Positions 2,814-63,913 are shown, counted from the first letter of the stretch. The stretch: 64,000 bases of DNA from an uncultured virus (IMG/VR IMGVR_UViG_3300010158_000044) (IMGVR_UViG_3300010158_000044); one strand, 5' to 3'. Numbers and translations: made by a program. The notes: a model not told the origin generated them from the letters alone.

Positions 2814-3937
2814 TGCAAGGTCAGATTAAAGTAGGTGGGTCTTGGAACCATGCCGCTAAAACTATATTTGTAAAGGTAACTACAGGGGGGGCCTCTGGTT
2901 GGCATAACGTAACCTCTGGTTGGGTTAAAGTTAGCGGTGTATGGAAAAAATGGTTTTTATCTACTTTCTTAGATAACTTTCAACGTACTACTAGCGCCAC
3001 TTCTTTAGGCTCTCCTGATGGAATTAAAACTTGGAGTAACATTCGCGGTGCTTGGGGCATTGTAAGTAACACAGCAACAGCTAATTCTGCTGCCAGTACA
3101 TACCCAATTGCAACTATTGACTTTGGTTCTACAGATGTAACGATTCTTCAAGATGGCTTAACTCCAGGTGTTGGTGCTGCTTTTTGGGTGACTGATAGCA
3201 ATAACTGGTGGGCTACGGCTACTAATGAAACTCAAAACTCTCAAACTCAATATGTAGCTGGTAGTACTAGCTACGGTACTTGTTATTCCCCCGCTACTAC
3301 TAACTACGGCACTTGCTATAACGCTGGAAATCCCAACTATGGTACATGTACTGGTGGTGGAAATATCTATTTTGGTACTTGCTCTACCCCTGGAAATACT
3401 ATCTATGGCACCTGTTATTCTTACGTTTACGGCAGTTATTACAATTCCTATACATGTGCTATCGGAACTAATCCAACCACTTATTATTCATGTTCTGGAG
3501 TTAACCCGACGTATAATTATTCTTGTCCTGATGGTGGTAGTAACACTGGAAATTCTTTTTCCTGTCCTTCAGGAAGTAACGCAGCTTATAATTATACTTG
3601 CGCTACTGGAACTAATGCGCCATATTATACAACTACGTACTCTTATGCCTATACAGTAAATGTTCTTAAGTCTATAGCTGGAACAATTACTACGGCAGCA
3701 ACGTTTACTTTTTCATCTTTAGTTGTTGGCCTTAAAACATTAATATACGGATCAACAGGAAACATAACTGTTAGGGCCTATTCAGCTTCAGGATTTGGCA
3801 GTCAAATTGGCTCTGATCAGACCTATACAGCCCCAAGTTACACAGCAACTACAACTCATGGTATAATTCTTGCTCCAGCAAACTATGCACAGGGCACTAC
3901 ATTTTCTAGTTACGAAGTAGACTTTATAACAATTTAG
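2813..3937 (+). CDS. tail fibre/receptor-binding protein with Cys/Tyr-rich insert
   Basis: TAATG-coupled start at 2813; N-terminal KVGGSW/VKVSGVWK repeats, lectin-like beta-rich body, 10 regularly spaced Cys. Confidence 0.6.
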   Translation: MQGQIKVGGSWNHAAKTIFVKVTTGGASGWHNVTSGWVKVSGVWKKWFLSTFLDNFQRTTSATSLGSPDGIKTWSNIRGAWGIVSNTATANSAASTYPIATIDFGSTDVTILQDGLTPGVGAAFWVTDSNNWWATATNETQNSQTQYVAGSTSYGTCYSPATTNYGTCYNAGNPNYGTCTGGGNIYFGTCSTPGNTIYGTCYSYVYGSYYNSYTCAIGTNPTTYYSCSGVNPTYNYSCPDGGSNTGNSFSCPSGSNAAYNYTCATGTNAPYYTTTYSYAYTVNVLKSIAGTITTAATFTFSSLVVGLKTLIYGSTGNITVRAYSASGFGSQIGSDQTYTAPSYTATTTHGIILAPANYAQGTTFSSYEVDFITI

Positions 3938-3945
3938 GGATAAAA

Positions 3946-4281
3946 ATGGCATTTAAAAATCGGTACAAAGAAGAACTTAAACAATACAAAAATAACAAAA
4001 GAAAAAACTTTATAAAATCTTTGCCGCATAAATTAGGTTTTCATTTTCATTGGTATAAAGACTTACAAATGAAAAATATTATAGAACAAAATTTATTGCC
4101 AGATACCTCTTCTGTTAATAAACATCTTGCTTTTATAATAGATGATGAAGTAGTAGAGATCATGCACTGTCAAGAAAGATTAGCTGCTATTTTATTAAGT
4201 AATCCAAAAATTGTTGAAGTATTAGACCTTACTATGGTTAAAGTTGGATATAAATATAAAAACAATAAGTTTATAAAATAA
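3946..4281 (+). CDS. hypothetical protein, paralogue of 5910..6173
   Basis: LAFIIDDEVVEIM...LAAILLSNP.IV. Confidence 0.6.
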   Translation: MAFKNRYKEELKQYKNNKRKNFIKSLPHKLGFHFHWYKDLQMKNIIEQNLLPDTSSVNKHLAFIIDDEVVEIMHCQERLAAILLSNPKIVEVLDLTMVKVGYKYKNNKFIK

Positions 4282-4297
4282 CTTTTAAGGAGGCAAA

Positions 4298-5056
4298 ATG
4301 TATAAAAAAATAGAGTTTGTACTAGATTCTGGATACACTCTTCCAATTAATATTCCAATACCCGCAGCATCAATTTTACCTAATTGGTGGAAAGAAGGGG
4401 AATCTTTTATTAATAGAGAAACTGGTGCTTTAGATATGAGTACCCCAGATTTAAAAGCTGCAGGTATGAAATCTTGCATGCCATTTCTTGATGCTCTTAA
4501 TTCAGGTTATTTTCTTACTACTTGGGTTGATATTGAAATTACTAAAAATGACGGGGTAGAAATTAAGTACAAATATTTAGATAAAAATTCTAAGGGGGAA
4601 AATATTTATAGCGCCATTGATTGGGGAATGGTTAAAGAAAGAAATGGAGCTATTGGGTATACGATTCCACGTCCTGCCGGTCATTCTCACAATCACATGG
4701 TATGGGATAGTAAATGGGGTTGGGAAGTTCCTAAGGGGTGGAGCGTGCTTGTTACACATCCTTTAAACCAAGCACAATTACCTTTTACAACATTATCCGC
4801 TATAGTAGACAGTGATAGATATGTCCCTCATGGAAATATTCCTTTCTTTTTGAAAGAAGGTTGGACAGGTGTTATTGAAAAAGGAACTCCTTTTGCTCAG
4901 TTAATACCGATTAATCGGCAAGAATGGATGGCTACCTCTAAAGTAGCCGGTCCTAAAGAAAAATTTATTGCCAATAAAGCTAGGTCTGTGCAATTTGGTT
5001 ATTATAGGTCTAAACTTTGGGTACCTAAAAAATATAGAAATGATACAGATGTTTAA
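4298..5056 (+). CDS. conserved phage hypothetical protein (DUF6065-like), paralogue A
   Basis: AAGGAGG RBS; P.WW, K.C.PFLD..GY, P.GWS.L.THP.N, VD.D, GTP.AQ..P. Confidence 0.6.
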   Translation: MYKKIEFVLDSGYTLPINIPIPAASILPNWWKEGESFINRETGALDMSTPDLKAAGMKSCMPFLDALNSGYFLTTWVDIEITKNDGVEIKYKYLDKNSKGENIYSAIDWGMVKERNGAIGYTIPRPAGHSHNHMVWDSKWGWEVPKGWSVLVTHPLNQAQLPFTTLSAIVDSDRYVPHGNIPFFLKEGWTGVIEKGTPFAQLIPINRQEWMATSKVAGPKEKFIANKARSVQFGYYRSKLWVPKKYRNDTDV

Positions 5057-5837
5057 AAATAATAAAAAATTAAGCATTACGCCAACAAAAGATAACACAA
5101 TTGAGTTTTTGCTTACTGATACTGATTTAAATAGTTCCCCCGTAAATATAGTAAGGGGCATAGATAAAATACCTGACTGGTATAAAGACCTTACTATTAG
5201 AACTTCAATTACTCATGAAGAAGAAAATGTTACGCACACTAATTTTACAATTAAACGTTGCATTCCTGTGTTAGATGTTTTAACTTTAGGGTACTATATT
5301 GTTACCGCTAGAGACTATACATTTAAGTATGATGAGGAAAAAGGTCACCATACAATATCCGGGGCTTTTAATACATCCTATCAACCAGTAAGTATGCACC
5401 CCATAGAACAACTTGGGGGTATGCCATTTTCTTCTGAGTATTGTGTCTTTGCCTATAAGTGGATTAACCCATATGTAATCAAAACTCCAGCTGGGTATAG
5501 CTCTTTGATAAGTCATCCATCTAATTCCCCATACCTACCCTTTTATACCCTTGGTGGGGTTGTAGATACAGACTCTTATTTTAGGCCTATAAATTTTCCA
5601 TTCCTTGTTAAGAATACGTTTAGTGGGGTTTTACCCGCAGGAACCCCTATAGCCCAGATTACCCCTTTTAAAAGAGATGAGTGGTCTTCAAAAATTATCA
5701 CTAACCCTTCCGATGAATTTAGGGTAAGCCAAAATTTGTTAACAGAACAGTACGAAAAAGATAGGCAAGGGCCTGGCGGCAAGGAAGTAGGCGGGGTTTA
5801 TAAAAAGCTTTACCGCACTAAAAAACGGTATCTTTAA
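5049..5837 (+). CDS. conserved phage hypothetical protein (DUF6065-like), paralogue B
   Basis: same motifs as 4298..5056; start could be 5040 or 5049. Confidence 0.6.
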   Translation: MFKNNKKLSITPTKDNTIEFLLTDTDLNSSPVNIVRGIDKIPDWYKDLTIRTSITHEEENVTHTNFTIKRCIPVLDVLTLGYYIVTARDYTFKYDEEKGHHTISGAFNTSYQPVSMHPIEQLGGMPFSSEYCVFAYKWINPYVIKTPAGYSSLISHPSNSPYLPFYTLGGVVDTDSYFRPINFPFLVKNTFSGVLPAGTPIAQITPFKRDEWSSKIITNPSDEFRVSQNLLTEQYEKDRQGPGGKEVGGVYKKLYRTKKRYL

Positions 5838-40962: not shown

Positions 40963-41269
40963 GGGGCAGAAACAATCTCTAAAGCATGAAAAGCGATTAG
41001 AGAAAGCTACGGGTGGCAAGCGCAGTGCCGCCTCTGGTGCATTTTGGTCTCGTAAGGGGGACGTCAGAACAGATGACCTCCTTATCGAGCACAAGTGGAC
41101 TGGTAAAAAGTCGGTAACAATTAAGTCAGATGTACTTGAAAAGATTACTAGAGAAGCAATACTTGATAGCAGAACGCCAGTACTTGGTCTGCATCTTGAT
41201 GGTGAAAACTACGTCGTGCTATTGGAGGAGGATTTTTTTGAACTGCGTAATGCAGTAAGAGGTGAATAG
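40952..41269 (+). CDS. PD-(D/E)xK nuclease / Holliday junction resolvase-like
   Basis: HE.R, ASGA....KGDV......IEHK. Confidence 0.75.
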   Translation: MKSEGQKQSLKHEKRLEKATGGKRSAASGAFWSRKGDVRTDDLLIEHKWTGKKSVTIKSDVLEKITREAILDSRTPVLGLHLDGENYVVLLEEDFFELRNAVRGE

Positions 41270-41610
41270 TGCGATATAGCGACGACCCGGAATGGACTTG
41301 GAGATATGATGCCAAGTGTCAGGGCGAAGATACAGAGATGTTCTTCCCACCCCGAGACAAAGCTCTCTACAAGCCGATAGCGGATAAGGCTAAAGCAATA
41401 TGTTGGGGCAAGGATGGGCGACCACCGTGTCCTGTACGTAAAGAATGTCTTAAGGAAGCTATCAACAACAATGAGTTACATGGAATCTTTGGTGGGCTAT
41501 CCCACAGAGAAAGAAATGCGGCCGAACGTAAACTTAAGAAACAGGGGATAACTTTAGATGAGTGGATTGACCAAGGGAGCAAGTATGGGAAAGCCGGTGA
41601 CGGTTCCTAG
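41269..41610 (+). CDS. whiB: WhiB family transcription factor
   Basis: AKC....EMFFP, AKAIC(8 aa)CPVR.EC..EA, GIFGGLS.RER. Confidence 0.92.
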   Translation: MRYSDDPEWTWRYDAKCQGEDTEMFFPPRDKALYKPIADKAKAICWGKDGRPPCPVRKECLKEAINNNELHGIFGGLSHRERNAAERKLKKQGITLDEWIDQGSKYGKAGDGS

Positions 41611-43350: not shown

Positions 43351-43436
43351 AGGCTTATAGGGGTACTGACGGGCGTTTAAAGGGTATTGTAGGGCTTTAG
43401 GTGGGCACACAAATCGAAACCAAAGGACTACAAATC

Positions 43437-43730
43437 GTGACCGATACTCCAACAACACCTAATACAGAAGAGAAGTTCCTACGTGTAGGGGCTGGCTCTA
43501 ATGCACAGTCAGTCGGGTCGGCTATTGCCCACGCCCTTTATGAAAAACCTCAGGTGCACTTACGTGCAGTGGGGGCCTCAGCAGTTAACCAGGCGGTAAA
43601 AGCTATTGCTATTGCCAGCGGTTACGTTGCACCACGAGGTATGAACCTAACCTGTCGCCCAGGATTTACTACGGTAGATTCAAGAGACGGACAGATTAGT
43701 GCAATTGTCTTTACAATCAACGTAAGTTAA
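43437..43730 (+). CDS. spoVS: stage V sporulation protein S (SpoVS)-family protein
   Basis: LRV...SN..SV..AIA...RAVGA.AVNQAVKAIAIA.G.VAP.G..L.C.P.F matches the SpoVS consensus; AAGGA RBS. Confidence 0.9.
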   Translation: MTDTPTTPNTEEKFLRVGAGSNAQSVGSAIAHALYEKPQVHLRAVGASAVNQAVKAIAIASGYVAPRGMNLTCRPGFTTVDSRDGQISAIVFTINVS

Positions 43731-49230: not shown

Positions 49231-49386
49231 ATGGCAAAGATGCGTATCAAAGATCCTCATGGCAAGGATATGGACTATAAAGTTGAAAAACTTAAAGTCA
49301 TGACTCCTGAACGTAAGGCTCAAATTGAGGCTAAAGCCAAGGCTTCAGCTAAACCGACAGATAAAAAGAAAGCGAAGAAAAAGTAA
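49231..49386 (+). CDS. 51-aa Lys-rich protein
   Basis: read manually: MAKMRIKDPHGKDMDYKVEK...KKKAKKK; TAATG-coupled to next gene. Confidence 0.6.
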   Translation: MAKMRIKDPHGKDMDYKVEKLKVMTPERKAQIEAKAKASAKPTDKKKAKKK

Positions 49387-49862
49387 TGGATCTAAACAAG
49401 AAGCGTAGAGAGCACAACACTAAGCGTGTTGGAGAAGCAATCCGTGGAAACAAATGGGATTTGAACAAGCCATCTGTTCATGTTATTCCTCGTACTGCTG
49501 ATAAGGTAGAGCCTAAGAAACCTGAATCAGGTAGCCCTAAACCTAAAACTGATTTTGGTGATCACGAAGGACATCGTTATTGGCATGATCATGGCCCATA
49601 TACTAAGCCAAAGCCAAAGCCAAAACCAACTCCAGTAATTGAAACACCTAAATCAAAGCCTAACTCTTCCCAGGAGGATAGTTGGTTTAAAGATGAAGAC
49701 AGTGCTAAACGTCGTAAACCACATCGTCCTTATGATGATGATGATAAACCAAATGGCGGTTCACCTATAGTACCTAAGATAAAGCCAAAATCTCCAGCTG
49801 GTGGGCAATCAAAAGAAATTCCAACAACTAAAAAGTATTTACCAGAATATAACAAACACTAA
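49386..49862 (+). CDS. Lys/Pro-rich disordered protein
   Basis: ORF track; KP repeats. Confidence 0.6.
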   Translation: MDLNKKRREHNTKRVGEAIRGNKWDLNKPSVHVIPRTADKVEPKKPESGSPKPKTDFGDHEGHRYWHDHGPYTKPKPKPKPTPVIETPKSKPNSSQEDSWFKDEDSAKRRKPHRPYDDDDKPNGGSPIVPKIKPKSPAGGQSKEIPTTKKYLPEYNKH

Positions 49863-49870
49863 GGATAACT

Positions 49871-50149
49871 ATGCGCACAGAGAATAAATCACTTAACCAA
49901 AGCGTTAATGAAGGCGCCACAGATGGAAAGTACCGCAAGGTACGTCCTAATACAACTGTTGCTCCAGGTACAGGCGAAGATATTACTCTAGCCAATCGCC
50001 GTGGACTACACCCATACTGGAACTATGATTTTATTGATCAAGAGACACCTAACAAGGTTGCTCCAGGATCTGACGAGGCTAATTCAACACCTCGTGCAGC
50101 TATGCCTGTAGCTCACATCTCTAATGATCAGATGTTAGGTACATACTAA
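49871..50149 (+). CDS. hypothetical protein
   Basis: AAGGA RBS; EGATDGKYRK.RP. Confidence 0.65.
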   Translation: MRTENKSLNQSVNEGATDGKYRKVRPNTTVAPGTGEDITLANRRGLHPYWNYDFIDQETPNKVAPGSDEANSTPRAAMPVAHISNDQMLGTY

Positions 50150-50153
50150 TATT

Positions 50154-50438
50154 GTGGAAGAAACTCCAGACAATGTAGTCAAATTTCCTATGACTAGAGC
50201 TATGCGCTTTCGGCATTCCGTAAATAAAGCTAAAGATGCATTGTTTGAACCTGAGCAGGACACCCATGAAACAAAAGAACCTGTAGCAGAAGAGCCGCTA
50301 AGGCAAGAACATTTTGATGTAGGGCAACAAGAAGCAAAAATTCATTCTTTACGTGATCAGCAGATTAAGCGTAATATGAAAGCAGGCGATGAGTCTGTTG
50401 ATCGTATGATTAACATGAAAGACCCAACAAAGGATTAA
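50154..50438 (+). CDS. hypothetical protein
   Basis: ORF track; NVVKFP motif. Confidence 0.5.
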   Translation: MEETPDNVVKFPMTRAMRFRHSVNKAKDALFEPEQDTHETKEPVAEEPLRQEHFDVGQQEAKIHSLRDQQIKRNMKAGDESVDRMINMKDPTKD

Positions 50439-50440
50439 TA

Positions 50441-50647
50441 ATGGCTACAGTACCCCGCAGAGAATTTAAGCGACCCCACGTAAAATTTCGCACTGGTGTT
50501 ATTTCTTCTGAAGAAATTATGAAAGCTGTGGCAGCTAGCGGAGTACCTGATGACACAGAGCTAACTGGTGTTAAAGGGCTTCGTAATAAACCTGTCCTTG
50601 AAGGTGAAAAAGATCCTAAGGTAAAGAACTTATACGGGAAGAAGTAA
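50441..50647 (+). CDS. hypothetical protein
   Basis: AAGGA RBS. Confidence 0.55.
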   Translation: MATVPRREFKRPHVKFRTGVISSEEIMKAVAASGVPDDTELTGVKGLRNKPVLEGEKDPKVKNLYGKK

Positions 50648-50649
50648 CT

Positions 50650-51888
50650 ATGTCGGCAGAAGAGATTCTAAGCTTTGCTAAAACACATGCCGGTAAAGGT
50701 TATCGTTCTGCCTTTGATCCTGAAGATGATCGTGGCGATGAAGGCGAAAACATTCAAGGAGAAGAAATTCTCCGTGAACCTAAGCATCGTGCTAAGCAGA
50801 AGAGCATTGAAGTATTTCCAAGCAACCCTGAATCAGGAACTTCTGCAGCTTTAAAAACTACAGCTATCACACAGCGCCGCAAGTCTGATCAAGGGCTTCC
50901 TTGCTTTAACGCAAATAAGAATCAAGGACATCCTAAAGCAACTCACATCTTTCATACCCCATCTACTAGCGTAGAAGGTGGCGTAGGCTATCCACTATGC
51001 GCAAGCTGCCTTTCAGAAGAACAAGAACATCTTGCCACATGGCGTAAAAAGAACCCAGATACATACGTAAAATCTCCAGAAGCAATTACTCCAGACGTAG
51101 CTACTCGTCAAATTGGAGAAGAAGCTGGTATGAGGAATGATAAAAGAGCTCTTATGTCTGCATATATGGTCTTTGGTAAAGGTATTAGCCCAGAAGATGA
51201 GCGTTCTTGGGTAGAGACTAAGGCCGGCTACGCTGGTCCAGGCCGTACTCCAGGTACAACTAAGGGCATAGAAAGAACTCCTGAGTTTAAAGCTACTGCA
51301 TTAGAAACAGCTCTAGAGCGTGCTCGTTCCGGTAAGGGCGGCCGTACAGCTGAAGAGCTACAAAAAATCGGTGAGTCTGAAGAAGAACGTAGAGATTATT
51401 CAAAGGGTTACGTAAAAAATAAAGCGGGAAAGCTCACACGTTTTTACAAGCCTCTTGGTGAAGCTGCTAAAGGCAAGCGTAAGCCTATTGCTAAGGGTAA
51501 CTATGTAGCTAAAAAAGATGCTGCTCCAGGAGAAGCACCTATTGAAAAGGTTATGTCTGTAGCTAAGGAAGCCAAGAAGCACGGTACATATTTAGATAAA
51601 GATATTTGGCGTGCCATCATTGAGAATCATGGTGAAGGCGTAGTTCAGCCTAAGCATGTCGTAGAGCATGTTAAGGGCCAGCAAATGCAAAAAGAGTTTG
51701 AAGCTAAAAACAAGGGTAAGAAGCAAAAAGCCCTCCCTATTTCACGCCGTCCTGGCGCATTCTCATCTTATGTACAGAACGCTGCCGGATCTAATGACTT
51801 TGAAGAGCGTAAGGAAGCTAATGCTGATGAAGATTGGCAAAGCTACCTATCTCGTAATGAAGAATTTAACGGTGGTTCTGGCCGCTAG
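50650..51888 (+). CDS. large charged hypothetical protein
   Basis: 412-aa ORF; C...H...CASC possible zinc site. Confidence 0.7.
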   Translation: MSAEEILSFAKTHAGKGYRSAFDPEDDRGDEGENIQGEEILREPKHRAKQKSIEVFPSNPESGTSAALKTTAITQRRKSDQGLPCFNANKNQGHPKATHIFHTPSTSVEGGVGYPLCASCLSEEQEHLATWRKKNPDTYVKSPEAITPDVATRQIGEEAGMRNDKRALMSAYMVFGKGISPEDERSWVETKAGYAGPGRTPGTTKGIERTPEFKATALETALERARSGKGGRTAEELQKIGESEEERRDYSKGYVKNKAGKLTRFYKPLGEAAKGKRKPIAKGNYVAKKDAAPGEAPIEKVMSVAKEAKKHGTYLDKDIWRAIIENHGEGVVQPKHVVEHVKGQQMQKEFEAKNKGKKQKALPISRRPGAFSSYVQNAAGSNDFEERKEANADEDWQSYLSRNEEFNGGSGR

Positions 51889-51934: not shown

Positions 51935-52513
51935 ATGACCATTCCAATTTTGGGTCAAGGCGGCAACGCCGATGAAGGAACATACACAGAGATCAAGGAC
52001 GACGGTCCTAAGATTCGTCTGCTCTACTGCTATAACTGCAAATCAATTGAAGAGCTTCCAGACTTTGAAGGTCATCCAGATGACGACGTAACTCTTCAGG
52101 TTTTGATTGATCGTCATGAATCTGCAGGAATTCCACATAGCGGATTTTTATCTAAAGTGGGAGTTAAGCTGTACTCTCGTCCTGAGGTACGTAAGCAGAT
52201 TATTGAAAACCTTCGTAACAAGGTCGGTGGCGGCTTAGCTGATATAGATCCTGATTACTATACGACCAAGGCAACATTCTTTGATGATGCTATGAAGTGC
52301 TTTAATCTACACTTACGTCCTGTAGAGGGATGTTATGATTGGAAAGTTGAAAGCAAGCGCTTGGTACCAAAAAGCACAGCAGAAGCTAGAAAAGAACTCG
52401 GTCTTGAAACTGCAGCAAAATCTGGTGGCACAAAGGTATACTTGTGCGACTTTTGCCCAGCTAAGACTTTTGTAGTAGAACAAAACCGTAAAAAACTCGG
52501 ACTATACGAATAG
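51935..52513 (+). CDS. zinc-binding hypothetical protein
   Basis: CYNC, H...H, C..H....C, LCDFCP. Confidence 0.7.
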   Translation: MTIPILGQGGNADEGTYTEIKDDGPKIRLLYCYNCKSIEELPDFEGHPDDDVTLQVLIDRHESAGIPHSGFLSKVGVKLYSRPEVRKQIIENLRNKVGGGLADIDPDYYTTKATFFDDAMKCFNLHLRPVEGCYDWKVESKRLVPKSTAEARKELGLETAAKSGGTKVYLCDFCPAKTFVVEQNRKKLGLYE

Positions 52514-52521
52514 GATATAAA

Positions 52522-52803
52522 ATGACAGACGAAACAACAACCTCAGATGCGACAGCCGAAGCTCCAGCTCATCCAGCAATTAAGTTTGGTTTTGCTGTTC
52601 TTATTGATGATGGCGGAAACGTATTCATTGAAAAGAGCCCATCGGTATTTTCTTTGCCAGTAGAGCGTGAAGCAACTCTTATCGAAGTTCGCCGCTACAC
52701 CTCTGAAATTCTTATGGATCTTCAGGCACAGGCAGCAGCTGAATACTCAGCGCTTCGAATTGCAGCTATTGCAGAAGAAGCTAAGGCAGCTAAAAACTCC
52801 TAA
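52522..52803 (+). CDS. hypothetical protein
   Basis: AGGA RBS; REATL motif. Confidence 0.6.
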   Translation: MTDETTTSDATAEAPAHPAIKFGFAVLIDDGGNVFIEKSPSVFSLPVEREATLIEVRRYTSEILMDLQAQAAAEYSALRIAAIAEEAKAAKNS

Positions 52804-52857: not shown

Positions 52858-53772
52858 ATGGGAATTTATGATTATCAGAAGGCTCCGGGTATTGCACCCG
52901 GGGCTACTTCTTATTTCAGCGCACCTGCAGCTGAACTAGATCCTCGTTTATTCCAAGGTGAATCATTACGCATAACTATGCGTGATGGAATCTTAGAGAT
53001 TCTTTTTGATTTCTTAGGCCGCAATTTCTCTGATCCATATAATTGGACTAGAGCTTGGTTAGCTGGTTCTGGTGTCTCTTATCAATGGCAAGCAGCTCGT
53101 CAACCTGGCGATCTGGATTGTCTTGTTGGTATTGAGTATGTAAAGTTTCGTCAATCAAACCCAGAATATATAGGCTTCTCTAATCAAGAGATAGCTTCTA
53201 TGTTCAATGAAAGCTTTAATGCTGAGATTATGCCTAATACCCGTAACTGGGAAGGCTACGAGCTTACATTTTATGTAAACCCTGCAACTGATATTCGGGA
53301 GATTAACCCGTATGCAGCCTATGATCTTATTGCGGATGCTTGGACTGTAAAACCTGAGCACAATCCTCAACCACCATTCAGTCGTGATTGGGAACAAAAA
53401 GCACAGCGTGATCATGACATGGCGGCGGAGATCTTAGATAGGTATAACAGCGCTATCAATGATCTTAGAGGAGCACCAAATGATGCTTATCGAATTAATG
53501 CTGAGAGAAAGCTGAGACTTGCTCAAGATCAAGCTGTCGCATTCTATGATGATGTTCATCATGGTCGCAATATTGCATTCAGTCAGACGGGTACCGGGTA
53601 CGCAGACTTCCACAACTATCGCTGGCAAGCCGGTAAGAAATCTGGAGCTATACAAGCTTTAAGAACTATCAAAGATCAAAGAGATTCGTTAGAAAAAAAG
53701 AGTCAAAAAGAGCTCTATGGTATAGAGCTTCCAACTACAGCTACGCTTATACGGAGAACACTCCGAGGTTAG
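52858..53772 (+). CDS. Pol-beta superfamily nucleotidyltransferase
   Basis: WLAGSGVSYQW...GDLDCLV (GS...DxD) and a downstream YELTFY acidic residue. Confidence 0.75.
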   Translation: MGIYDYQKAPGIAPGATSYFSAPAAELDPRLFQGESLRITMRDGILEILFDFLGRNFSDPYNWTRAWLAGSGVSYQWQAARQPGDLDCLVGIEYVKFRQSNPEYIGFSNQEIASMFNESFNAEIMPNTRNWEGYELTFYVNPATDIREINPYAAYDLIADAWTVKPEHNPQPPFSRDWEQKAQRDHDMAAEILDRYNSAINDLRGAPNDAYRINAERKLRLAQDQAVAFYDDVHHGRNIAFSQTGTGYADFHNYRWQAGKKSGAIQALRTIKDQRDSLEKKSQKELYGIELPTTATLIRRTLRG

Positions 53773-53790
53773 ATGCTGTAGAATAAGGGC

Positions 53791-53889
53791 ATGGACAGGT
53801 ACCAATGCCAGATCTGCAACAAGATGTACGTGGTAACTTCTCTCGCAAGATATTGTGAGCAGAAACATTTGGACAAAGATGAGGAATGA
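53791..53889 (+). CDS. 32-aa zinc-finger peptide
   Basis: read manually: MDRYQCQICNKMYVVTSLARYCEQKHLDKDEE; TAGAAT-N6-ATG. Confidence 0.65.
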   Translation: MDRYQCQICNKMYVVTSLARYCEQKHLDKDEE

Positions 53890-54350
53890 TGTCAGCAATT
53901 ATTGCAATAGAGGGTGTTTTAATGACCGAGGTTGGAGATCCAATCCCGGAAGGCATTAAGCTGTTCCGAATTCTTTCTGAAGTTTATCGTGTTGTTTTAA
54001 GCTCCGATATGGATCCAGATAAAACTGAGCATTGGCTTCGTAGCCATTTAATCTTTGGGTACGGCGATATCTATGATAATTCAAAGTTTTTTGTAGGACA
54101 AGAGCTACGCCTACGCCACCTGGATATAGCTAAGTCGCAAGGCAAGGTTGAGCTATTTATTGACTCAGACGCAGATTTTTGCGCTGCTGCCCTATCTATG
54201 AACATCCCAACTATTATGTTTGCTTCTCCTCGTTTTGTTAGAACTAACCGCAGTGTTAAACCGTGGGAAGATCTGCAGAAAGAAGTAGATCTGCAGCGTG
54301 AAGCTCTTTTGGAAGCTCACCTAGGTAGTAGAATCAACCGGTTCGAATGA
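53886..54350 (+). CDS. HAD-fold protein with degenerate catalytic motif
   Basis: IIAIEGVL (cf. DxDGVL), PI.EG, VLSS, LFIDSD. Confidence 0.65.
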   Translation: MMSAIIAIEGVLMTEVGDPIPEGIKLFRILSEVYRVVLSSDMDPDKTEHWLRSHLIFGYGDIYDNSKFFVGQELRLRHLDIAKSQGKVELFIDSDADFCAAALSMNIPTIMFASPRFVRTNRSVKPWEDLQKEVDLQREALLEAHLGSRINRFE

Positions 54351-55825
54351 ACCTGGTATTCATGGGGGCTGAAGTACCGTCCCATCGCATATTACTTACT
54401 AACATGGGAGTTAAGCATGTTAGCGTCAACTATTATCGTTTAGTCAAGCGTGGCTTGCCTAAGACCAAAGATTACTTGATCCAGGGAAGATTTCCGGATG
54501 ATGTTAAAGTCTACGTAGATGGTGGCGGGCACCAGATCAATGACCTTAACATGACTGAGCGTGAGATTCAAGAGTATGCGGAGAACTACCAGGAATGGGT
54601 CGGCATCAATGCCGAAAGAATCTCTGGAGCTACTGAGCTAGACGCTAAAGTACTTGGGCCTTCATGGACTAACTACCATCGCACCACTATGATTGAGAAT
54701 CTTGGGGAAGATAAGCTTTGGGTAGTGTGGCACCCAGAATTAGGCCATACGGCCCTCTACGGCCTTGCAGAGCGATACATGAACATTGCCCTACTAGGAG
54801 AGACTTTAGAGGACGATACAAGCCTTGCAGCCCGTTCTAGAGCCCTTCTAAATGAGTTCCCTGATCTACAATTTCACGGTGTGGCATGTGCCAAACCTGA
54901 TAACCTACGCCAGGTGGCATTGACCACAGCAAGCAGTCTTTCTTGGTTAAGTCCAATGATGCGTGGAGAAACAATTGTCTGGGATGGAACCCGTTTGGTT
55001 CGTTACCAGAAGAAGCAAAAAGATCAAGCTCGTCCTCGCTATAAAGCGATCATTGAGAGAGCTGGTTTAGACTACGACAAGATTATTAATGACGATAGTA
55101 ATGAGGTAACCCGCCTCGCTATATGGTCCTACATGCAACTGGAGAACGCCTTGGATAAAAGATCCGGTAAGAAGCTATCTGATAACAGTGAGTTTATAGA
55201 TGACCCAGGAAGTGCGGAAACAGGTGGTGCGCTTCCTGATAAGAGACCTTCAGAAGGTAGGAAAGTTTTGGCAGAAAGAGACGTAAATGACCGTCAGATT
55301 CTGCCTGTTTTTGGTGTAAAAGTTAAGACGGTTGTTGAAAAAGATGAGGATGGAAAAGATGTTCTTAAAGATGTACCTATCCTTTCTAGCACCTCTGCAT
55401 CACTTCGTCAATGCGATACTTGCTTTGTAGCGGCAAATTGTCCTGCTTTTAAACCTGCTAATAGTTGTGCTTTCAATCTACCTGTAGAGATTAAGACTAA
55501 AGAGCAACTTAAGGGTTTACTCAACACAGTTATCGAAATGCAGGGCGCTAGAGTCGCTTTTGCACGATATGCAGAGGAATTGAACGGCGGATACCCGGAT
55601 CCTAACACTGGACAAGAGATTGATCGACTCTTTAAATTGGTTGGTCAAATGAAAGAACTGGAAGAGAATAAAGAGTTCATCCGTATCACAGCAGAGCGCC
55701 AAACTTCTGGCGGTGTATTGTCAGCCCTATTTGGTGACAAAGCTAACACTCTCCGTGAGCTCCCTAACGGTGGACTAAGTGAGGCCCAATCGAGTAGAAT
55801 ATTAGATGAGGGCTTTAAACTTTAA
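54347..55825 (+). CDS. TGT/DpdA-like TIM-barrel protein with C-terminal Cys4 and helical domain
   Basis: ordered motifs VDGGG, ELD, VWH, IALLG, HGVA, SSLSW, RG echo DSGAF/LD/PV.H/ALGG/H.LG/DS.SW; CDTC....C......C. Confidence 0.55.
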   Translation: MNLVFMGAEVPSHRILLTNMGVKHVSVNYYRLVKRGLPKTKDYLIQGRFPDDVKVYVDGGGHQINDLNMTEREIQEYAENYQEWVGINAERISGATELDAKVLGPSWTNYHRTTMIENLGEDKLWVVWHPELGHTALYGLAERYMNIALLGETLEDDTSLAARSRALLNEFPDLQFHGVACAKPDNLRQVALTTASSLSWLSPMMRGETIVWDGTRLVRYQKKQKDQARPRYKAIIERAGLDYDKIINDDSNEVTRLAIWSYMQLENALDKRSGKKLSDNSEFIDDPGSAETGGALPDKRPSEGRKVLAERDVNDRQILPVFGVKVKTVVEKDEDGKDVLKDVPILSSTSASLRQCDTCFVAANCPAFKPANSCAFNLPVEIKTKEQLKGLLNTVIEMQGARVAFARYAEELNGGYPDPNTGQEIDRLFKLVGQMKELEENKEFIRITAERQTSGGVLSALFGDKANTLRELPNGGLSEAQSSRILDEGFKL

Positions 55826-57909: not shown

Positions 57910-58071
57910 GTGTCAGAAGAGCAAGATATCAATCCAGACCTATTCGATGAAGATTTTGAAGCAGAGCTTGAGGATGGCTTTGAAGACTTTGATTTCGATG
58001 AGGAAGATCTAGAAGATCTAGAGGATTCAATTGTTGATGATGAGCCAGAGGCTGACGAAGACCTCGCATAA
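57910..58071 (+). CDS. 53-aa extremely acidic protein
   Basis: read manually; TAAGGAG RBS, GTG start; 29 of 53 residues D/E, no K/R/H. Confidence 0.75.
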   Translation: MSEEQDINPDLFDEDFEAELEDGFEDFDFDEEDLEDLEDSIVDDEPEADEDLA

Positions 58072-58089
58072 ACGGCCAACACAAACATT

Positions 58090-58124
58090 AAGCCCCCCGA
58101 CCATAATGGCCGAGGGGCTTTTTG
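58090..58124. terminator. terminator at convergence of the two genome arms
   Basis: AAGCCCC..CCAT-a-ATGG..GGGGCTT-TTT. Confidence 0.8.
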
Positions 58125-59415: not shown

Positions 59416-59640
59416 TCACAGTATCAGTGCGGCATTTATTTCATCTTCTTCGGTTTCATTATATATGTCTCCTACTTCAGCCCATCCAGCGTTAAAGTCC
59501 TCACGCCATTTGGCTGAGTTCTCATCCATAATCTGTTCTTCAGCAAGAGCTTTAGCTTCAGCTTCGGATGATGCTGTAATGAATGAGTCATATATCCTAT
59601 GTTCATGGATTGTTACTCTATACATATTTCTATCTACCAT
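59416..59640 (-). CDS. small acidic hypothetical protein
   Basis: TAATG-coupled; Y.V.I.E......I.A.S..EA...A. Confidence 0.6.
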   Translation of the reverse strand: MVDRNMYRVTIHEHRIYDSFITASSEAEAKALAEEQIMDENSAKWREDFNAGWAEVGDIYNETEEDEINAALIL

Positions 59641-60092
59641 TATTCCACCCCCTTTGTTGTTACTCGGAATGACCCATCTGGCATAGGCCATTTGTATGGC
59701 AAGTCATCTTCTACCTCAAAGTCATAATGCTCTGGAAGCTTACGCTTTAAGTTAGATTGATGACTCTTATGAAACTCTTCTGCTCCTAACCACCAAGGTT
59801 TCTTGATAGCTACAAGCTTATGTTGTTTCATAAGTTCGATTATTTGCCCCCTCATATTATCTACGAACCCACGCTTTGACCACTCATTACACATAGTGAT
59901 AGCATAGGCAGCTAGCATACCTTCGTTACCACGCCACATTACAGCAGCAGGGTGATTGCGCCATCCCTCAGTTAGACCCAGGTTGGCCTTGAGTATTTGA
60001 AACGCTTCTACACGTTGCTTACCCAATCTCCTATCGTCTAAGGATTCCGCTACTTGCACGAAGTCTGCATACGGTAGAAATGTATTTACCAT
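59640..60092 (-). CDS. pyrimidine dimer DNA glycosylase (MSMEG_6728/DenV-like)
   Basis: TFLPY.DF...A..LD.RRLGKQRVEA.QIL, W.NHPA..MW.G, PWWLG...H.SH.SNL.RK. Confidence 0.9.
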   Translation of the reverse strand: MVNTFLPYADFVQVAESLDDRRLGKQRVEAFQILKANLGLTEGWRNHPAAVMWRGNEGMLAAYAITMCNEWSKRGFVDNMRGQIIELMKQHKLVAIKKPWWLGAEEFHKSHQSNLKRKLPEHYDFEVEDDLPYKWPMPDGSFRVTTKGVE

Positions 60093-60406
60093 GGTGCGCT
60101 CCAAGCGTTTAGGTTACATGATGTACAACGGACTTGATAGTCCTCTTCCATTACCTCCCACTCAAAATGTTTACACATTTGGTGTTCAGGTTTTAGCGAG
60201 TCCTCTTTCAATATAAATGGGTAACCAGGCGGCCAATCTGACTCATCTGGATCCACATCATATTGATAGTACTCACCCGCTAATTCTTCTGGAGTAAATT
60301 CTTTAATCATCTCCCCTGCTACTTGTCTAGCAGACCTGAGTGCCTGTATAGATACTCCAGCTTTTTTTGCTGTTAGATATTCTTCGAAGTTAAACACTTC
60401 TCCCAT
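60086..60406 (-). CDS. hypothetical protein
   Basis: ORF track; C.H...C..C. Confidence 0.55.
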   Translation of the reverse strand: MGEVFNFEEYLTAKKAGVSIQALRSARQVAGEMIKEFTPEELAGEYYQYDVDPDESDWPPGYPFILKEDSLKPEHQMCKHFEWEVMEEDYQVRCTSCNLNAWSAPW

Positions 60407-60619: not shown

Positions 60620-62515
60620 TTAAGCGCTTCTACGCTTTTTGATTGCACCCATTACTACCGCTTTGGCAAATGGGATTAGATCACGGGCAGAGTTGATACG
60701 CCCATAGATTTCAGCTTCATGGCGAAAACTATTATCGCTTTCTCCACGTTCTGTATACCACGTGTAATCTCGATCACGCATGATTAGAGTCATCGCAGTT
60801 AGAATGCCACGCTTACTAATACGTTGTATAACCTCGTCATTTCTTTCGTGGTTAAACGCACCATCAGTAATGATAAACAGCATTTTGTTCTTCTTACGAG
60901 AAGACATGAGAAGCTGTTCAGCAGCAATCAGTGAGCCATATGGATTGGTACCTCCATTGCCATATATAAACTTAAAGCGTGTTTTGTGAGCACGCTCTGT
61001 ACGTTTGTAGGCAATCTCGGTTTTATCATCGAATGCGTACACCGTTACCGGTGCATCGATAGCCTCAAGAGCACGCTTGATAGTCCAGCATGCTAAGGAT
61101 GCGCTACGATCATTTTGGTCACTGCTCATAGAACCGGATCGATCAACTAAGATCACCGCTTCTACATCAGCACCATCGTTACCCTCTTCCCAACGGTCAA
61201 AGGCTTCGTCTACTTCACATCCATTGATAACACGTTGGACATTTAGCTTACCACTTGGTACGCCTTTGTTCCAACCTGGCTCACACTCATCACGTAAGCG
61301 CTCAAGCTCTCTAGCAAAAGCACGATACATAACGACTGTGTCATTAGGAACATCGGTGAGGTCGAATTTGCCATCCTTAGTAGACTCATCGAACTTACCA
61401 TCACCACCAACGATTACTCGTTGCTTGGCTTTGATATCCTGTTGAACTGCTTTGTTAGCATAGACCTCATCAATTGCATTGTTTAATGCATTATTGATAT
61501 TGTCTGGAATACCACCCTTACTCTCATGATGTCCTTTACCAGGATCAATAGATGGTGGTGCATCTTGCTGTGCTTTCTGAAGCATGTCACGTATTGCTAG
61601 TGCTTCTGCTGCGCTTTGTGGTGCCGGTATGTTGAGGCCCTCATCGCTGGCATCGGGTTTGTTTGTGTTGGCGTTGTCTTCCTTAGTTTTAGGCTTAGGC
61701 ATATACACTGACTCTGCTTTACCCATATTACTTGCACGTTGTGAGTCTTTCTCTTGCATCTTGCCAGGCTCAGGACGACCCTTAGCCATTGGATCACGGC
61801 TACCGCAAGCATTAGGACCACCCGATATGTCTGGGAACTCTTTGCGTATAGGCTTGAGCACCTCATCATTAAAGCGTTCGATAAGTATTTGTGCTTTCAT
61901 GTAGTCCCTAGGGAATGCAAGTAAGCGATACTGATCCACGATATCCATGATGTTAGGTATAAGTTCGGGGAATGCAAACGCATCTCGATACGCTTCCCGA
62001 ATCTCTACCGGTAGATATCTGCGACCACGTACTAGCATGTAAGCGCCAGAGGTTTCCTCTGGTGTTTCACCTAGCCATCTAGCCACAGTACCAATTAGAT
62101 ATGGAGCAACAGCTGGATACCTAGCACATAGTAATGTCTCAATGCGCTGGTCTTCCAACATGTTGGTAGCCTCCATATAATCATTTTGTAGAACCCATTT
62201 GATCAGTTCTGTACCCTTGCGAGGCGTATAGAAATGATGGGCTAGCTCATGATAGTTCAGGCCCGTCACCTGAGTTAGTGTTTCCATATCCATCTCAGAT
62301 ATTTCTTCTTGATTGATATAGATTGCGGCACCGTCAGACCAAGCGGGCGCAGGCCCACCAGCCATTACGTTGACGATTAGTGGATCACCTGTAAGAACAC
62401 GATCTGCTTGTTCATACACACGACAAAGAGCACCTAATTGAATGATGCGTTCTTGTTCTAGTTCTGAACGAGCGTCTCCTCCCCACGGTGAGTCATCTAC
62501 TTCATCTATAAGCAT
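60620..62515 (-). CDS. vWA domain protein with N-terminal HExxH metallopeptidase-like domain (CobT-like)
   Basis: YHELAH, NMLEDQRIE, SGKLN, LVDRSGSM (MIDAS), GGT, IITDG. Confidence 0.88.
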   Translation of the reverse strand: MLIDEVDDSPWGGDARSELEQERIIQLGALCRVYEQADRVLTGDPLIVNVMAGGPAPAWSDGAAIYINQEEISEMDMETLTQVTGLNYHELAHHFYTPRKGTELIKWVLQNDYMEATNMLEDQRIETLLCARYPAVAPYLIGTVARWLGETPEETSGAYMLVRGRRYLPVEIREAYRDAFAFPELIPNIMDIVDQYRLLAFPRDYMKAQILIERFNDEVLKPIRKEFPDISGGPNACGSRDPMAKGRPEPGKMQEKDSQRASNMGKAESVYMPKPKTKEDNANTNKPDASDEGLNIPAPQSAAEALAIRDMLQKAQQDAPPSIDPGKGHHESKGGIPDNINNALNNAIDEVYANKAVQQDIKAKQRVIVGGDGKFDESTKDGKFDLTDVPNDTVVMYRAFARELERLRDECEPGWNKGVPSGKLNVQRVINGCEVDEAFDRWEEGNDGADVEAVILVDRSGSMSSDQNDRSASLACWTIKRALEAIDAPVTVYAFDDKTEIAYKRTERAHKTRFKFIYGNGGTNPYGSLIAAEQLLMSSRKKNKMLFIITDGAFNHERNDEVIQRISKRGILTAMTLIMRDRDYTWYTERGESDNSFRHEAEIYGRINSARDLIPFAKAVVMGAIKKRRSA

Positions 62516-62524
62516 TTAACCTCC

Positions 62525-63913
62525 TTATACTAGTTGTTTAGCCCATTCTTCCAGGCGTTGGTCAATGCTTGCATCTGCAGGATGCTCTGTTACTTCACCA
62601 GTATCTAGACCAAAGTCAGTCTTGATGTTGTACTCATGAGTCTGGAAGACCATGCGTACGCTGGCTTGCTCATCTGTACTAAAGTGAGCGATAAAGTTCT
62701 CTGCTGCAAACTCATAGCCAAGATCGTCTACAAGCTTAGTGAACTCCATACCCATATTGGTAGAGATTGGTGTTTCATATTGACCTTTAGCAGCCTCTAC
62801 ACGAAGTTGCTTCATCAATATGCGAAGAGCCTTAGAACCAATCAACTTCTCCTCAACAGCATCGTCATAATCCCAAGGGATTTGAATGTCGAAGCGATTG
62901 CGGAACGCAAAGTTGAGCGGCGTGGTGCCGATATAATCTGGATTCATAGTAGCAAAGATAGTAAGGTCTGGATGAGCCTCAATAGTCTCGCCGTGATGAT
63001 CGAGCAATATAATATTGCGACGACCATCGGTCAATGAATACAGATTGGTATAGATCTTAGGATTGATGAAGTTAACCTCATCAAGCAAAAGAACGCCACC
63101 ATTGCGAACTACGTCAGTTACTGGACCATCAATCCACATGAATGCACCTTCTCCATCGGAGACGAATTTTCCAGTCATTTGACTTGGCTCCATTGATGCA
63201 TTACCAGAGATTGATGCCATACGTAAGCCACGCTCTGAGGCCCACGCTTCAACTGATGTAGTCTTACCAGGGCCAGTTGGGCCATAGATAAGCACGTTGA
63301 TACCTTCAGCACGTGCGTGGTCATAGACTTTGAAGTCTTCCACGCCCCACACCTTGCGATGTACATAGCGCTCAGCTAATTCCTTGCGTGGAACTGTTGC
63401 AAGATTTACGCTAAACACTTTGCCACCGGATGATACTGATGTGTTGTCCATTGTTTGTGTTGGCACAGGAACTACCAACGGGACTGTTGCACCAGCTTGA
63501 CGACGATTATCTATTACATATGTTTCCAATGTGTCATCTCCAATTAGTGTTTGGTCATACAGTTCATAGAGTTTATCTAAGAACGGTGTTGTATCTGTAT
63601 TAGGTTCAGCCTTAGCATGCTGATTACATGCTTTAGTTCCCAATACAGGAGAATAGCCTTTGTCTGCAATTGCCTTCTCATCTGCTGCCGTAACATATAC
63701 GCCAACAGGGGTCCGTGTCAATTGCTCATTGCTATCAATCATGTTCACGAATTGATCTACGTGAGCATCCTCCCACTTATTGTGTGGACCTTTGCTACCA
63801 TCAGTCATTCGAGACCAGATTCTGACTCCACCTTCATGCGGGGACATAAGGATTTGACGTCGCTTAGCACCCATACTTGGTTCGTAAGACTCGGTGAATA
63901 CTGCTATCTCCAT
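62525..63913 (-). CDS. MoxR/CbbQ/CobS-like AAA+ ATPase
   Basis: GPTGPGKT, W.DGP, LLLDEVN, ATMNP.Y.GT..LN.AFRNRF; AGAAAGGA RBS. Confidence 0.92.
   Translation of the reverse strand: MEIAVFTESYEPSMGAKRRQILMSPHEGGVRIWSRMTDGSKGPHNKWEDAHVDQFVNMIDSNEQLTRTPVGVYVTAADEKAIADKGYSPVLGTKACNQHAKAEPNTDTTPFLDKLYELYDQTLIGDDTLETYVIDNRRQAGATVPLVVPVPTQTMDNTSVSSGGKVFSVNLATVPRKELAERYVHRKVWGVEDFKVYDHARAEGINVLIYGPTGPGKTTSVEAWASERGLRMASISGNASMEPSQMTGKFVSDGEGAFMWIDGPVTDVVRNGGVLLLDEVNFINPKIYTNLYSLTDGRRNIILLDHHGETIEAHPDLTIFATMNPDYIGTTPLNFAFRNRFDIQIPWDYDDAVEEKLIGSKALRILMKQLRVEAAKGQYETPISTNMGMEFTKLVDDLGYEFAAENFIAHFSTDEQASVRMVFQTHEYNIKTDFGLDTGEVTEHPADASIDQRLEEWAKQLV

Follow-up and report, generated by a model that had tools for sequence, protein, structure and literature searches.

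A conserved phage gene module built around a DpdA-like barrel protein that lacks the aspartate nucleophile

The module and its distribution

Here we describe a small gene module in the DNA of an uncultured virus (IMGVR_UViG_3300010158_000044), analysed as one stretch of 64,000 nt (the window). Its largest gene encodes a 492-residue protein, TGT492, which carries the public name queuine tRNA-ribosyltransferase or DpdA-like, and thus that of a relative of the tRNA-guanine transglycosylases (TGTs) and of the DpdA enzymes that insert 7-deazaguanines into DNA. By analysing this protein and its homologues we find a true TGT/DpdA-fold barrel in which the aspartate nucleophile has been replaced by serine, joined to a separable tail with four conserved cysteines (Cys4). 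Five further genes lie upstream: those for the Cys/His-rich protein g192, the small protein g93, the nucleotidyltransferase-like protein NT304, the 32-residue peptide Zn32 and the HAD-like protein HAD154 (Table 1). An earlier note on this DNA had singled out the last three of these together with TGT492 as a candidate nucleotide-modification system next to a ribonucleotide reductase (RNR). Direct reading of the sequence bears out the four open reading frames (ORFs), their motifs and both ATGA overlaps, at Zn32/HAD154 and HAD154/TGT492; the four genes are real, but the note had missed the upstream partners g192 and g93 and a link of the tail to putative small terminases. The ratio of nonsynonymous to synonymous substitution (dN/dS), computed here and below against four close relatives with dS near saturation and therefore rough, is 0.03-0.20 across all five module genes tested, which indicates purifying selection and shows that these are not chance ORFs.

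The partners were sought by tblastn in 47 IMG/VR loci that encode a close relative of TGT492, where the gene order is g192, g93, NT304, HAD-like, DpdA-like. The g192 gene lies upstream in all 47, in the same order each time, NT304 is likewise present in all, and g93 was detected in 45. Zn32 is detectable in 13; in the others NT304 abuts the HAD-like gene and leaves no room for it. RNR follows the module in 45 loci, and the remaining two are cut. In the phages BRock and GiJojo (33-35% identity) homologues of g192, NT304 and HAD154 stand upstream of the DpdA-like gene (NT304 is 35% identical to BRock gp39 at E 1e-64, and the HAD-like protein shows 25% identity at E 2e-12); the module is interleaved there with lysis genes, and RNR is not next to it. 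Two more distant viral loci, L058 and L059, keep g192, the HAD-like and the DpdA-like gene, and L059 keeps NT304, which is absent from L058. Searches for viral loci with the distant family members P0205 and P0254 found none.

A scan with the tail alignment of one genome per prokaryotic species added 11 loci, nine of them in assemblies of Streptomyces, Nonomuraea, Kitasatospora and Saccharothrix (L067-L075). Matches to a hidden Markov model (HMM) of g192 were found in BRock, GiJojo, L058, L059 and eight of these 11 loci, and a HAD-like HMM match directly upstream of the DpdA-like gene in the same four viral loci and nine of the 11; g93 gave weak HMM matches in locus L046, in GiJojo and in five bacterial loci. 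NT304 is missing from ten of the 11, Nonomuraea being its sole carrier. The annotated chromosomal loci have a protein with an fn3 domain, an amidase or CHAP enzyme and an SLT transglycosylase upstream, and cellular genes (P450, MazG) downstream, an arrangement that looks like the end of a prophage. BRock, in contrast, is possibly virulent according to its genome note (PMC7453282). A 19-kb contig binned with an Ignavibacteria metagenome-assembled genome (VGVV01000016.1) carries the whole module with two WhiB genes, an NT5C nucleotidase, an SNF2 helicase and DUF932, and with this content is most likely a mis-binned actinophage contig.

From the distribution over close, distant and chromosomal loci it follows that the constant core consists of g192, the HAD-like and the DpdA-like gene, with g93 as a usual companion, and that the nucleotidyltransferase is accessory. 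Zn32 and the RNR adjacency are lineage-specific, the latter being confined to the freshwater clade. The linkage assumed in the earlier note thus holds for the core, down to about 33% identity, but the nucleotidyltransferase is partly unlinked; neither it nor the 32-residue peptide is a fixed member, and proximity to RNR is not a trait of the module. The family of TGT492 as a whole comprises 848 clusters at 50% identity, with 1592 matches in the 90% collection, and is abundant in freshwater actinophages, Streptomyces phages and actinobacterial chromosomes.

Table 1. Coordinates of the module, of the parts of TGT492 and of the elements downstream (positions in the window).
Feature	Position	Strand	Remark
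g192, 192-residue Cys/His-rich protein	51935..52513	+	constant module member
g93, 93-residue protein	52522..52803	+	usual module companion
NT304, 304-residue Pol-beta-type nucleotidyltransferase-like protein	52858..53772	+	accessory member
Zn32, 32-residue C2-C-H peptide	53791..53889	+	lineage-specific small gene
HAD154, 154-residue HAD-like protein without the motif I nucleophile	53886..54350	+	constant partner, translationally coupled to next gene
TGT492, whole 492-residue protein	54347..55825	+	DpdA-like
TGT492 residues 1-275, DpdA/TGT-type TIM barrel without nucleophile Asp	54347..55171	+	AlphaFold2, Foldseek, VIA, hhalign
TGT492 residues 276-320, disordered, fast-evolving linker	55172..55306	+	pLDDT (predicted local distance difference test) 40-57, dN/dS 0.23-0.48
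TGT492 residues 321-492, beta-hairpin, CxxCx5CPx7C and helical hairpin tail	55307..55825	+	separable module
Class II (B12-dependent) RNR, 677 residues	55867..57900	+	downstream neighbour, this clade only
Strong hairpin, 14-bp stem, 9 G-C pairs	58090..58120	.	where + and - gene blocks converge (consensus scan only)

The barrel of TGT492 and its active site

The profile phrog_887 ('queuine tRNA-ribosyltransferase') covers TGT492 over its full length (E 1.9e-52). AlphaFold2, run with an alignment of 57 diverse members of the family, gives a model with a pLDDT of about 97 over residues 1-272, and in a Foldseek search of the PDB the top 50 matches are all TGTs (best E 9e-6). Structural alignment of residues 1-277 with VIA gives Z 17.7 to the archaeosine TGT 1iq8_A (root-mean-square deviation 3.5, 259 residues aligned) and Z 17.4 to the DNA preQ0 insertase DpdA 7ui4 (3.4, 261 aligned). 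For comparison at the sequence level we aligned six phage DpdAs, those of 9g and Iggy (experimentally validated), VpKK5, Sonali, phiFN37 and BCD7, which stand next to que genes or a ParB-like gene; hhalign joins the 57-sequence family profile to this six-DpdA profile with a probability of 99.67 and E 2e-25 over 249 columns. Other searches found little or nothing: a Pfam scan of TGT492 gave no TGT match and nothing at E <= 0.1, phmmer with TGT492 or with BCD7 gp21 had no match in the PDB, PDB profile searches with the family, NT304 and HAD alignments returned nothing or chance rows at E >= 0.06, and hhalign of the family profile against the single E. coli Tgt sequence reached a probability of only 0.4, its lone aligned stretch placing DSGG on DGGG. 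Taken together, residues 1-277 are confirmed as a true TGT/DpdA-fold barrel, homologous to validated phage DpdAs, as the earlier note had supposed from the order of motifs. Among the reference phages, Arthrobacter phage Sonali and Fusobacterium phage phiFN37 have the ParB-like gene directly upstream of their short DpdA, an echo of the bacterial DpdA-DpdB pair, and phiFN37 also has a gene annotated as a queuosine precursor transporter.

In the DpdA of S. Montevideo, Asp95 serves as the acid/base residue, Asp130 in base recognition and Asp256 as the nucleophile. The three residues are reported as invariant across TGT and DpdA, and alanine in place of the acid/base or the nucleophile Asp abolishes exchange (PMC10164549). 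The same three are invariant in the six-DpdA alignment (9g D72, D114 and D215). The corresponding stretches of TGT492 read VD58-G-G and S196-S-L-S-W200, with C356-x2-C359-x5-C365-x8-C374 and helices following in the tail, so that the reported changes of DSG to DGG and of DSxSW to SSLSW, as well as the fusion to a Cys4 site and a helical tail, stand. In the profile alignment to 9g, D58 falls on D72 (the acid/base residue of the DSG motif), D99 on D114 (base recognition), and H129 and H177 on two invariant His of the DpdAs. The nucleophile D215 of 9g, in DSxxW, pairs with S196, and BLASTP against BCD7 gp21 gives the same pairing of Asp with Ser196.

We followed these sites through a family alignment of 151 sequences (the window protein and 150 representatives) and a close set of 38 non-identical orthologues. 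Asp at site 196 occurs in one of the 129 representatives with residues at all three sites (P0137) and in none of the close orthologues, which have S (33) or A (5). At site 58 the 151 sequences have D85, E19, Y12, H7, T4 and S3, and the close set D25, T10, A2 and H1; the acid/base Asp is thus lost in 13 of 38. Site 99 is better kept, with D in 109 of 130 ungapped representatives and D35, N3 in the close set. The orthologue at locus L046, which is 50% identical and has a complete gene order, reads H, N and S at the three positions. The loss thus goes beyond the nucleophile, and constraint is relaxed over the entire canonical active site.

The precursor pathway is likewise missing where it was sought. 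Among the 70 window ORFs scanned there is no member of the Que, FolE or TGT Pfam families, in agreement with the earlier note, QueE not having been searched on its own; five complete relatives of the phage contain no QueC, PTPS/QueD or FolE (GTP cyclohydrolase I), again with no separate search for QueE, and the 71.9-kb viral record from which the window comes contains no QueC. In the complete relative G001, another 44 ORFs were annotated against PHROGs, and no other DNA-modification gene came to light. In view of these data TGT492 is very probably not a working 7-deazaguanine insertase. The case of a standard DpdA served by que genes elsewhere in the genome, which the earlier note had kept in view, fails on this judgement: the nucleophile Asp is replaced, and QueC, QueD and FolE are lacking from all five complete relatives.

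The gene is nevertheless not decaying, as its low dN/dS shows. Over the gene as a whole the ratio is 0.06-0.13; in the barrel it is 0.05-0.09, within residues 181-260 it falls to 0.01-0.08, in the linker, whose length is highly variable among relatives, it rises to 0.23-0.48, and in the tail it is 0.05-0.12. In the close orthologues the most conserved blocks of the protein are residues 181-260 and 361-460, and within the barrel conservation is lowest in the pocket loops at 61-140. Near-invariant barrel residues are G7, E9, W128, W200, G207 and W212.

The Cys4-helical tail, the partner proteins and the surrounding genome

The four tail cysteines recur in 147-148 of the 148 ungapped representatives. 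Bacteroides phage BS162P1 illustrates that the tail is a module of its own: there it forms a separate 251-residue gene after a gene for an Asp-bearing barrel (hhalign E 1.9e-20 for the tail and 2.2e-14 for the barrel). A tblastn search with the BRock tail at a permissive threshold reached 49 records, including 33 Gordonia, four Tsukamurella and one Rhodococcus phage, and the genes under these matches are mostly annotated as 'terminase small subunit' or hypothetical and lie near one end of the record. The match to Rhodococcus phage Mbo2 (E 2e-3) is alone near significance. Gene 1 of Mbo2 encodes 455 residues and is the first gene, directly upstream of the large terminase gene (TerL) and the portal gene; hhalign aligns the family profile, over residues 354-466 of the window protein, with residues 268-391 in the C-terminal part of Mbo2_001 (probability 90.8, E 1.2e-6) with identical CxxCx5Cx8C spacing. 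Further signals point the same way: phrog_6902 ('terminase small subunit') weakly matches three of 14 tails (best E 0.017), and Foldseek against BFVD finds the small terminase (TerS) of Gordonia phage Jumbo at E 2.5e-5, with a low TM score of 0.23. With the TerL of this phage group, tblastn at E <= 1e-10 reached 12 of 50,697 phage records, and these include all ten tail-carrying records. GiJojo and BCD7 contain no gene annotated as a small terminase. With the residue for base exchange lost and the tail shared with likely DNA-packaging proteins, the database name of TGT492 is probably wrong, and DNA binding is more likely than DNA modification.

Instead of zinc, the Cys4 cluster (CxxCx5CP) could hold an iron-sulfur centre. 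A relation of CxxCx5C to the iron staple of RecB-family nucleases was considered and set aside, the phrog_69 matches being weak (four of 14 members, best E 0.0054); the Cas4-like nuclease of the window has a different Cys spacing. A relaxed Pfam scan of 14 tail sequences gave nothing coherent, and a search for shorter tail-bearing proteins returned contig-end fragments of the same protein only, with no informative names.

Turning to the partners, the HAD-like protein resembles TGT492 in having lost its nucleophile. Motif I reads IIAIEGVL in HAD154 and h-h-[A/S/V]-x-[E/D]-G in every one of the 19 relatives aligned, including BRock and GiJojo, with the first Asp replaced by A, S or V, so the earlier note was correct on this point. 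The layout of motifs I, II and IV is readable in the alignment, and the language-model features of HAD154 (Atlas) place it nearest a NIF-type HAD cluster (0.92, 172 shared features); on these two grounds we regard it as a putative HAD fold. None of the 19 members matches any Pfam HAD model at E <= 5, a PDB profile search was empty, and hhalign against the NT5C protein of contig VGVV01000016.1 gave E 0.12. Its dN/dS is 0.03-0.14. Complex prediction with the barrel (residues 1-280) scored 0.00 in both runs, made without controls, and says nothing either way.

The g192 protein, at dN/dS 0.04-0.07, has the invariant residues C32, C35, H61, H68, C122, H126, C133, C171 and C174, from which it is probably Zn-binding; neither it nor g93 has a Pfam or PHROG match. 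Zn32 (C6-x2-C9-x12-C22-x3-H26) has weak zinc-finger matches in Pfam under the cut-offs (E 0.0066 and 0.0097) and a dN/dS of 0.11-0.20 in four comparisons.

The note's intact GS...DLD motif of a Pol-beta nucleotidyltransferase is found in NT304, in line with the superfamily pattern hG[GS]-x(9-13)-D-x-D plus a third carboxylate. Across 27 sequences G70, S71, G72 ... D85, L86, D87 and E135 never vary, nor does an N-terminal TSYFS (17-21), and E135, by its place on the next strand, may be the third carboxylate. The helical domain is strongly conserved, with many invariant residues, and dN/dS is 0.07-0.13. The AlphaFold2 model (pLDDT 83.7) has CD-NTases, ANT and cGAS at the head of its Foldseek list against the PDB, at a best E of only 0.02; VIA gives Z 6.5 to the minimal nucleotidyltransferase 1ylq_B (root-mean-square deviation 3.4, 89 residues aligned, residues 43-157), and the nearest named Atlas clusters carry PF01909 (0.96-0.97). 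There is no Pfam match at E <= 0.1. The nucleotidyltransferase fold thus has moderate support from the model comparisons. A wide VIA search was dominated by non-specific helical bundles, and two candidate relatives proved unrelated, the BCD7 'nucleotidyltransferase' gp015 (by BLASTP) and BRock gp37.

The window belongs to a myovirus-type phage from lake water with tail sheath, tube, baseplate, DnaB, primase, family A polymerase, a RecA/UvsX-like protein, WhiB and a CHAP endolysin; the parent viral record of 71.9 kb is rated 73% complete, and relatives are closed at about 100 kb with terminal repeats. The nearest cultured relatives are Streptomyces BRock-like phages and, for RNR, Actinomycetia phage DSL-LC01, which together with WhiB point to an actinobacterial host. 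The WhiB-type regulator (PF02467, 1.4e-17) and a SpoVS-like protein (PF04232, 1.3e-25), encoded at 41269-41610 and 43401-43730, both indicate such a host.

Downstream of the module the identity of RNR is clear (PF17975 2.5e-29, PF21995 4e-16, phrog_367 2e-136), and the hairpin in Table 1 is likely the end of a + strand transcription unit that continues through RNR; a promoter scan was uninformative, with 15 sites against 15.4 expected. Between RNR and the hairpin, at 57910-58071, lies an extremely acidic (D/E-rich) ORF of 53 residues. Beyond it, on the - strand, a 154-residue protein at 59640-60104 has a match (PF03013, 1.3e-18) to the family of pyrimidine dimer DNA glycosylases, repair enzymes of the T4 endonuclease V type. 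A MoxR-like AAA+ ATPase at 62525-63913, - strand (PF07728 3.7e-18; phrog_249), followed by a 631-residue VWA-domain protein at 60620-62515, forms a pair that is kept in G001 too. Upstream of the module, at 49386-51888, are Lys/Pro/Glu-rich ORFs of 158, 92, 94, 68 and 412 residues, none with a family, the longest being recognisable in the two closest loci only. Two neighbouring paralogous genes at 4298-5837 both belong to phrog_7084 of unknown function (3e-34 and 4.4e-40). In G001 (L065:6444-13429) four paralogous ORFs of about 470-480 residues, in two adjacent pairs and all of phrog_2295, probably encode tail-fibre-like proteins.

Proposed role, alternatives and relation to known systems

Our structural, alignment and gene-neighbourhood data suggest a model for TGT492 to which we assign a probability of about one half: the protein would be a non-catalytic DNA-binding protein that works with the pseudo-HAD and Zn-type partners, where the binding, the loss of activity and the formation of a complex are all things that we infer. 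According to this model TGT492 would descend from a long-form phage DpdA, a barrel with a Cys4-helical tail as in BCD7 gp21, that lost its aspartate nucleophile and with it the exchange of guanine for 7-deazaguanine. The barrel would still supply a surface for nucleic acid or guanine, as suggested by Asp99 and His177, which are mostly kept, and the conserved function would be carried by region 181-260 and the tail. The protein would act together with its translationally coupled and equally nucleophile-less HAD-like partner and with g192, the nucleotidyltransferase being an add-on in some lineages. In the more specific version that we prefer, though we hold it tentatively and think it somewhat doubtful, the tail may be a module of the small-terminase type, through which the protein would help to recognize phage DNA for packaging or a related transaction. 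Should this be so, the family would offer one of the rare documented examples in which packaging has recruited an enzyme fold to recognize DNA, and it would point to the missing small terminase of the BRock-like phages. A fuller history, which we consider unlikely, is that of a DNA-modifying enzyme recycled into genome packaging: a BCD7-like ancestor with DpdA and a Cys4 small-terminase module would have coupled 7-deazaguanine insertion to packaging, the chemistry would have been dropped in actinophages, and the barrel kept as the DNA-recognition head of a small terminase, perhaps flipping a guanine at the start of packaging, with the pseudo-HAD and Zn proteins as new subunits.

Several observations weigh against a binding protein of this kind and its link to packaging. 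The individual tblastn matches in Gordonia and Tsukamurella phages have E values of 0.3-4, and the small-terminase label of the Mbo2/GTE7-type genes is a positional annotation. Neither are the genes close to each other: TerL of G001 lies at 3616-5208 and its module at about 34.4-38.7 kb, some 30 kb apart, and in GiJojo the two genes stand at 24.6 kb (TerL) and 99 kb (DpdA-like); in G001, ORFs of 88 and 143 residues directly upstream of TerL could be the real TerS. The co-occurrence with one TerL may reflect the common descent of these phages alone. The tail may simply help a DpdA to act on DNA, given that in BCD7 it is fused to an apparently active DpdA in a que cluster. An activity that depends on the pocket, such as a hydrolytic glycosylase or a direct displacement, may persist, as Asp58 and Asp99 are kept in the window protein and Asp99 in most representatives. 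The model also gives no account of what the HAD-like protein, g192, g93 and the nucleotidyltransferase do.

The earlier note had offered two readings, new chemistry on a TGT scaffold or pseudo-enzymes repurposed as readers. We regard it as quite unlikely that the barrel can still flip out a guanine or hold a nucleotide and that, jointly with NT304 and the HAD-like protein, it produces or inserts a DNA or tRNA modification not yet described, by a route that needs no covalent Asp intermediate. Such an enzyme would account for Asp58, Asp99, His129 and His177 in the window protein and for the 109 of 130 representatives with Asp99, for the invariant G-S...D-x-D...E motif, conserved helical domain and low dN/dS (0.07-0.13) of NT304, and E9 and E/D208, acidic and nearly invariant, might in principle take part in catalysis. 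It is hard to reconcile with the loss of the acid/base Asp in 13 of 38 close orthologues, with L046, where all three Asp are gone and synteny is intact, with the pocket loops, where the barrel is conserved least, with the absence of the nucleotidyltransferase from L058 and from ten of the 11 loci of the genome scan that keep the rest, and with G001, in which no other modification gene was recognised. Repurposed pseudo-enzymes fit better, because Asp58 is kept in only 25 of the 38 and one orthologue at 50% identity has none of the three Asp; new nucleotide chemistry gained no evidence. To the ordinary singleton DpdA of the databases, inserting host-made preQ0 or another 7-deazaguanine into phage DNA, we give hardly any weight. 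The phrog_887 assignment (E 1.9e-52) and the RefSeq and SEA-PHAGES names in BRock and GiJojo speak for it, and there are known cases of singleton DpdAs dependent on their host (PMC6884629), but the essential nucleophile is Ser here and is absent from 128 of 129 representatives, and QueC, QueD and FolE are absent from five of five complete relatives; the Mycobacterium hosts described in the same paper lack Q-pathway genes, though they may not be the hosts of this phage.

Two further alternatives accept the loss of chemistry. A dead DpdA might act as an anti-defence decoy that binds the sites or partners of a host Dpd-type or other guanine-directed defence, or that shields DNA, and might have been kept after modification was abandoned under glycosylase pressure. 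The DpdA mutation G217E lets phages escape the host glycosylases Dag1 and Dag2, enzymes that destroy 7-deazaguanine DNA (bioRxiv 10.1101/2025.10.29.685425); this offers a selective route to DpdA inactivation and thus a plausible way in which the chemistry was lost. The copies at apparent prophage ends in actinobacterial chromosomes and an ArdA-like gene nearby in GiJojo would agree with such a role. We nevertheless consider it improbable: genes of that kind are usually patchy, whereas this one is core-like, occurring in 47 of 47 close loci, and all ten tail-carrying records fall in one TerL lineage. Still more improbable is that the tail alone is functional and the barrel a relic that persists through fusion. 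The separate tail of BS162P1, the Mbo2-type proteins that have the tail without a DpdA barrel and the drift of the active-site residues would suit a relic, but the barrel has a dN/dS of 0.05-0.09 and near-invariant G7, E9, W128, W200, G207 and W212, residues 181-260 are the most constrained of the whole protein, and a full-length barrel is kept across the 848 clusters.

The interpretation of TGT492 as a non-catalytic binding protein bears on how DpdA genes are read. Singleton DpdAs were noted by Hutinet et al. (2019) in phages of Mycobacterium, hosts without Q genes. No function was settled on there (PMC6884629), and the remark that singleton DpdAs of actinophages with such hosts may have diverged in function is one on which the present family bears. 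Hutinet et al. (2023) defined DpdA3 and DpdA4 and called DpdA a signature of deazaguanine DNA (PMC10516641). With the public names as they stand and DpdA proposed as such a signature, surveys that count this family would over-predict modified genomes. These two texts make no mention of Streptomyces or BRock, and their supplementary lists may include BCD7 or related proteins; the BRock genome note (PMC7453282) does not mention the DpdA-like gene, and a full-text literature search found no paper on a nucleophile-less DpdA clade, on this module or on a link between DpdA and the small terminase. As BRock and its relatives can be cultivated on Streptomyces, the question is directly testable.

The short DpdA1 proteins of Enterobacteria phage 9g and Pseudomonas phage Iggy and the S. 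Montevideo DpdA (7UI4) share with TGT492 a homologous barrel in which the acid/base Asp, the base-recognition Asp and two His are kept. They differ from it in their nucleophile Asp (9g D215, S. Montevideo D256), which is Ser196 here, in having no Cys4-helical tail, and in their linkage to que genes or the ParB-like DpdB, none of which is present here. Non-catalytic TGT barrels kept as nucleic-acid-binding partners have a precedent in eukaryotic QTRT2 and in the N-terminal domain of ArcS. These work beside a catalytic TGT or ArcS domain, whereas phages of the window type encode no catalytic TGT or DpdA.

For the tail, the nearest counterparts are the 'terminase small subunit' genes of Mbo2 and of the Gordonia and Tsukamurella phages GTE7, GMA7, TIN3/4, Woes and Jumbo (phrog_6902), which have CxxCx5Cx8C and the helices that follow it. 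Unlike TGT492, these proteins have an N-terminal part that cannot be aligned to the barrel, and each is encoded by the first gene, directly upstream of TerL; their function is assigned by annotation. Both modules occur side by side in BS162P1 (genes 00087 and 00088), where a barrel gene is followed by a Cys4-tail gene in the same TerL lineage, but there the barrel keeps DSG and VDSVTW, the two are unfused, and the module partners were not found in the region examined. The closest parallel is Bacillus phage BCD7 gp021 (757 residues, phrog_887). It differs in keeping IDSG and GDSTTW with the nucleophile Asp, in a much longer linker, and in adjoining genes for GTP cyclohydrolase, QueC, QueE and QueD; the 25-kb BCD7 region examined has no homologue of g192, the HAD-like protein or NT304. 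In spite of these differences it has the same two-module build as TGT492 (BLASTP E 3e-13 for the barrel and 3e-11 for the tail), and the two share their PHROG and TerL lineage.

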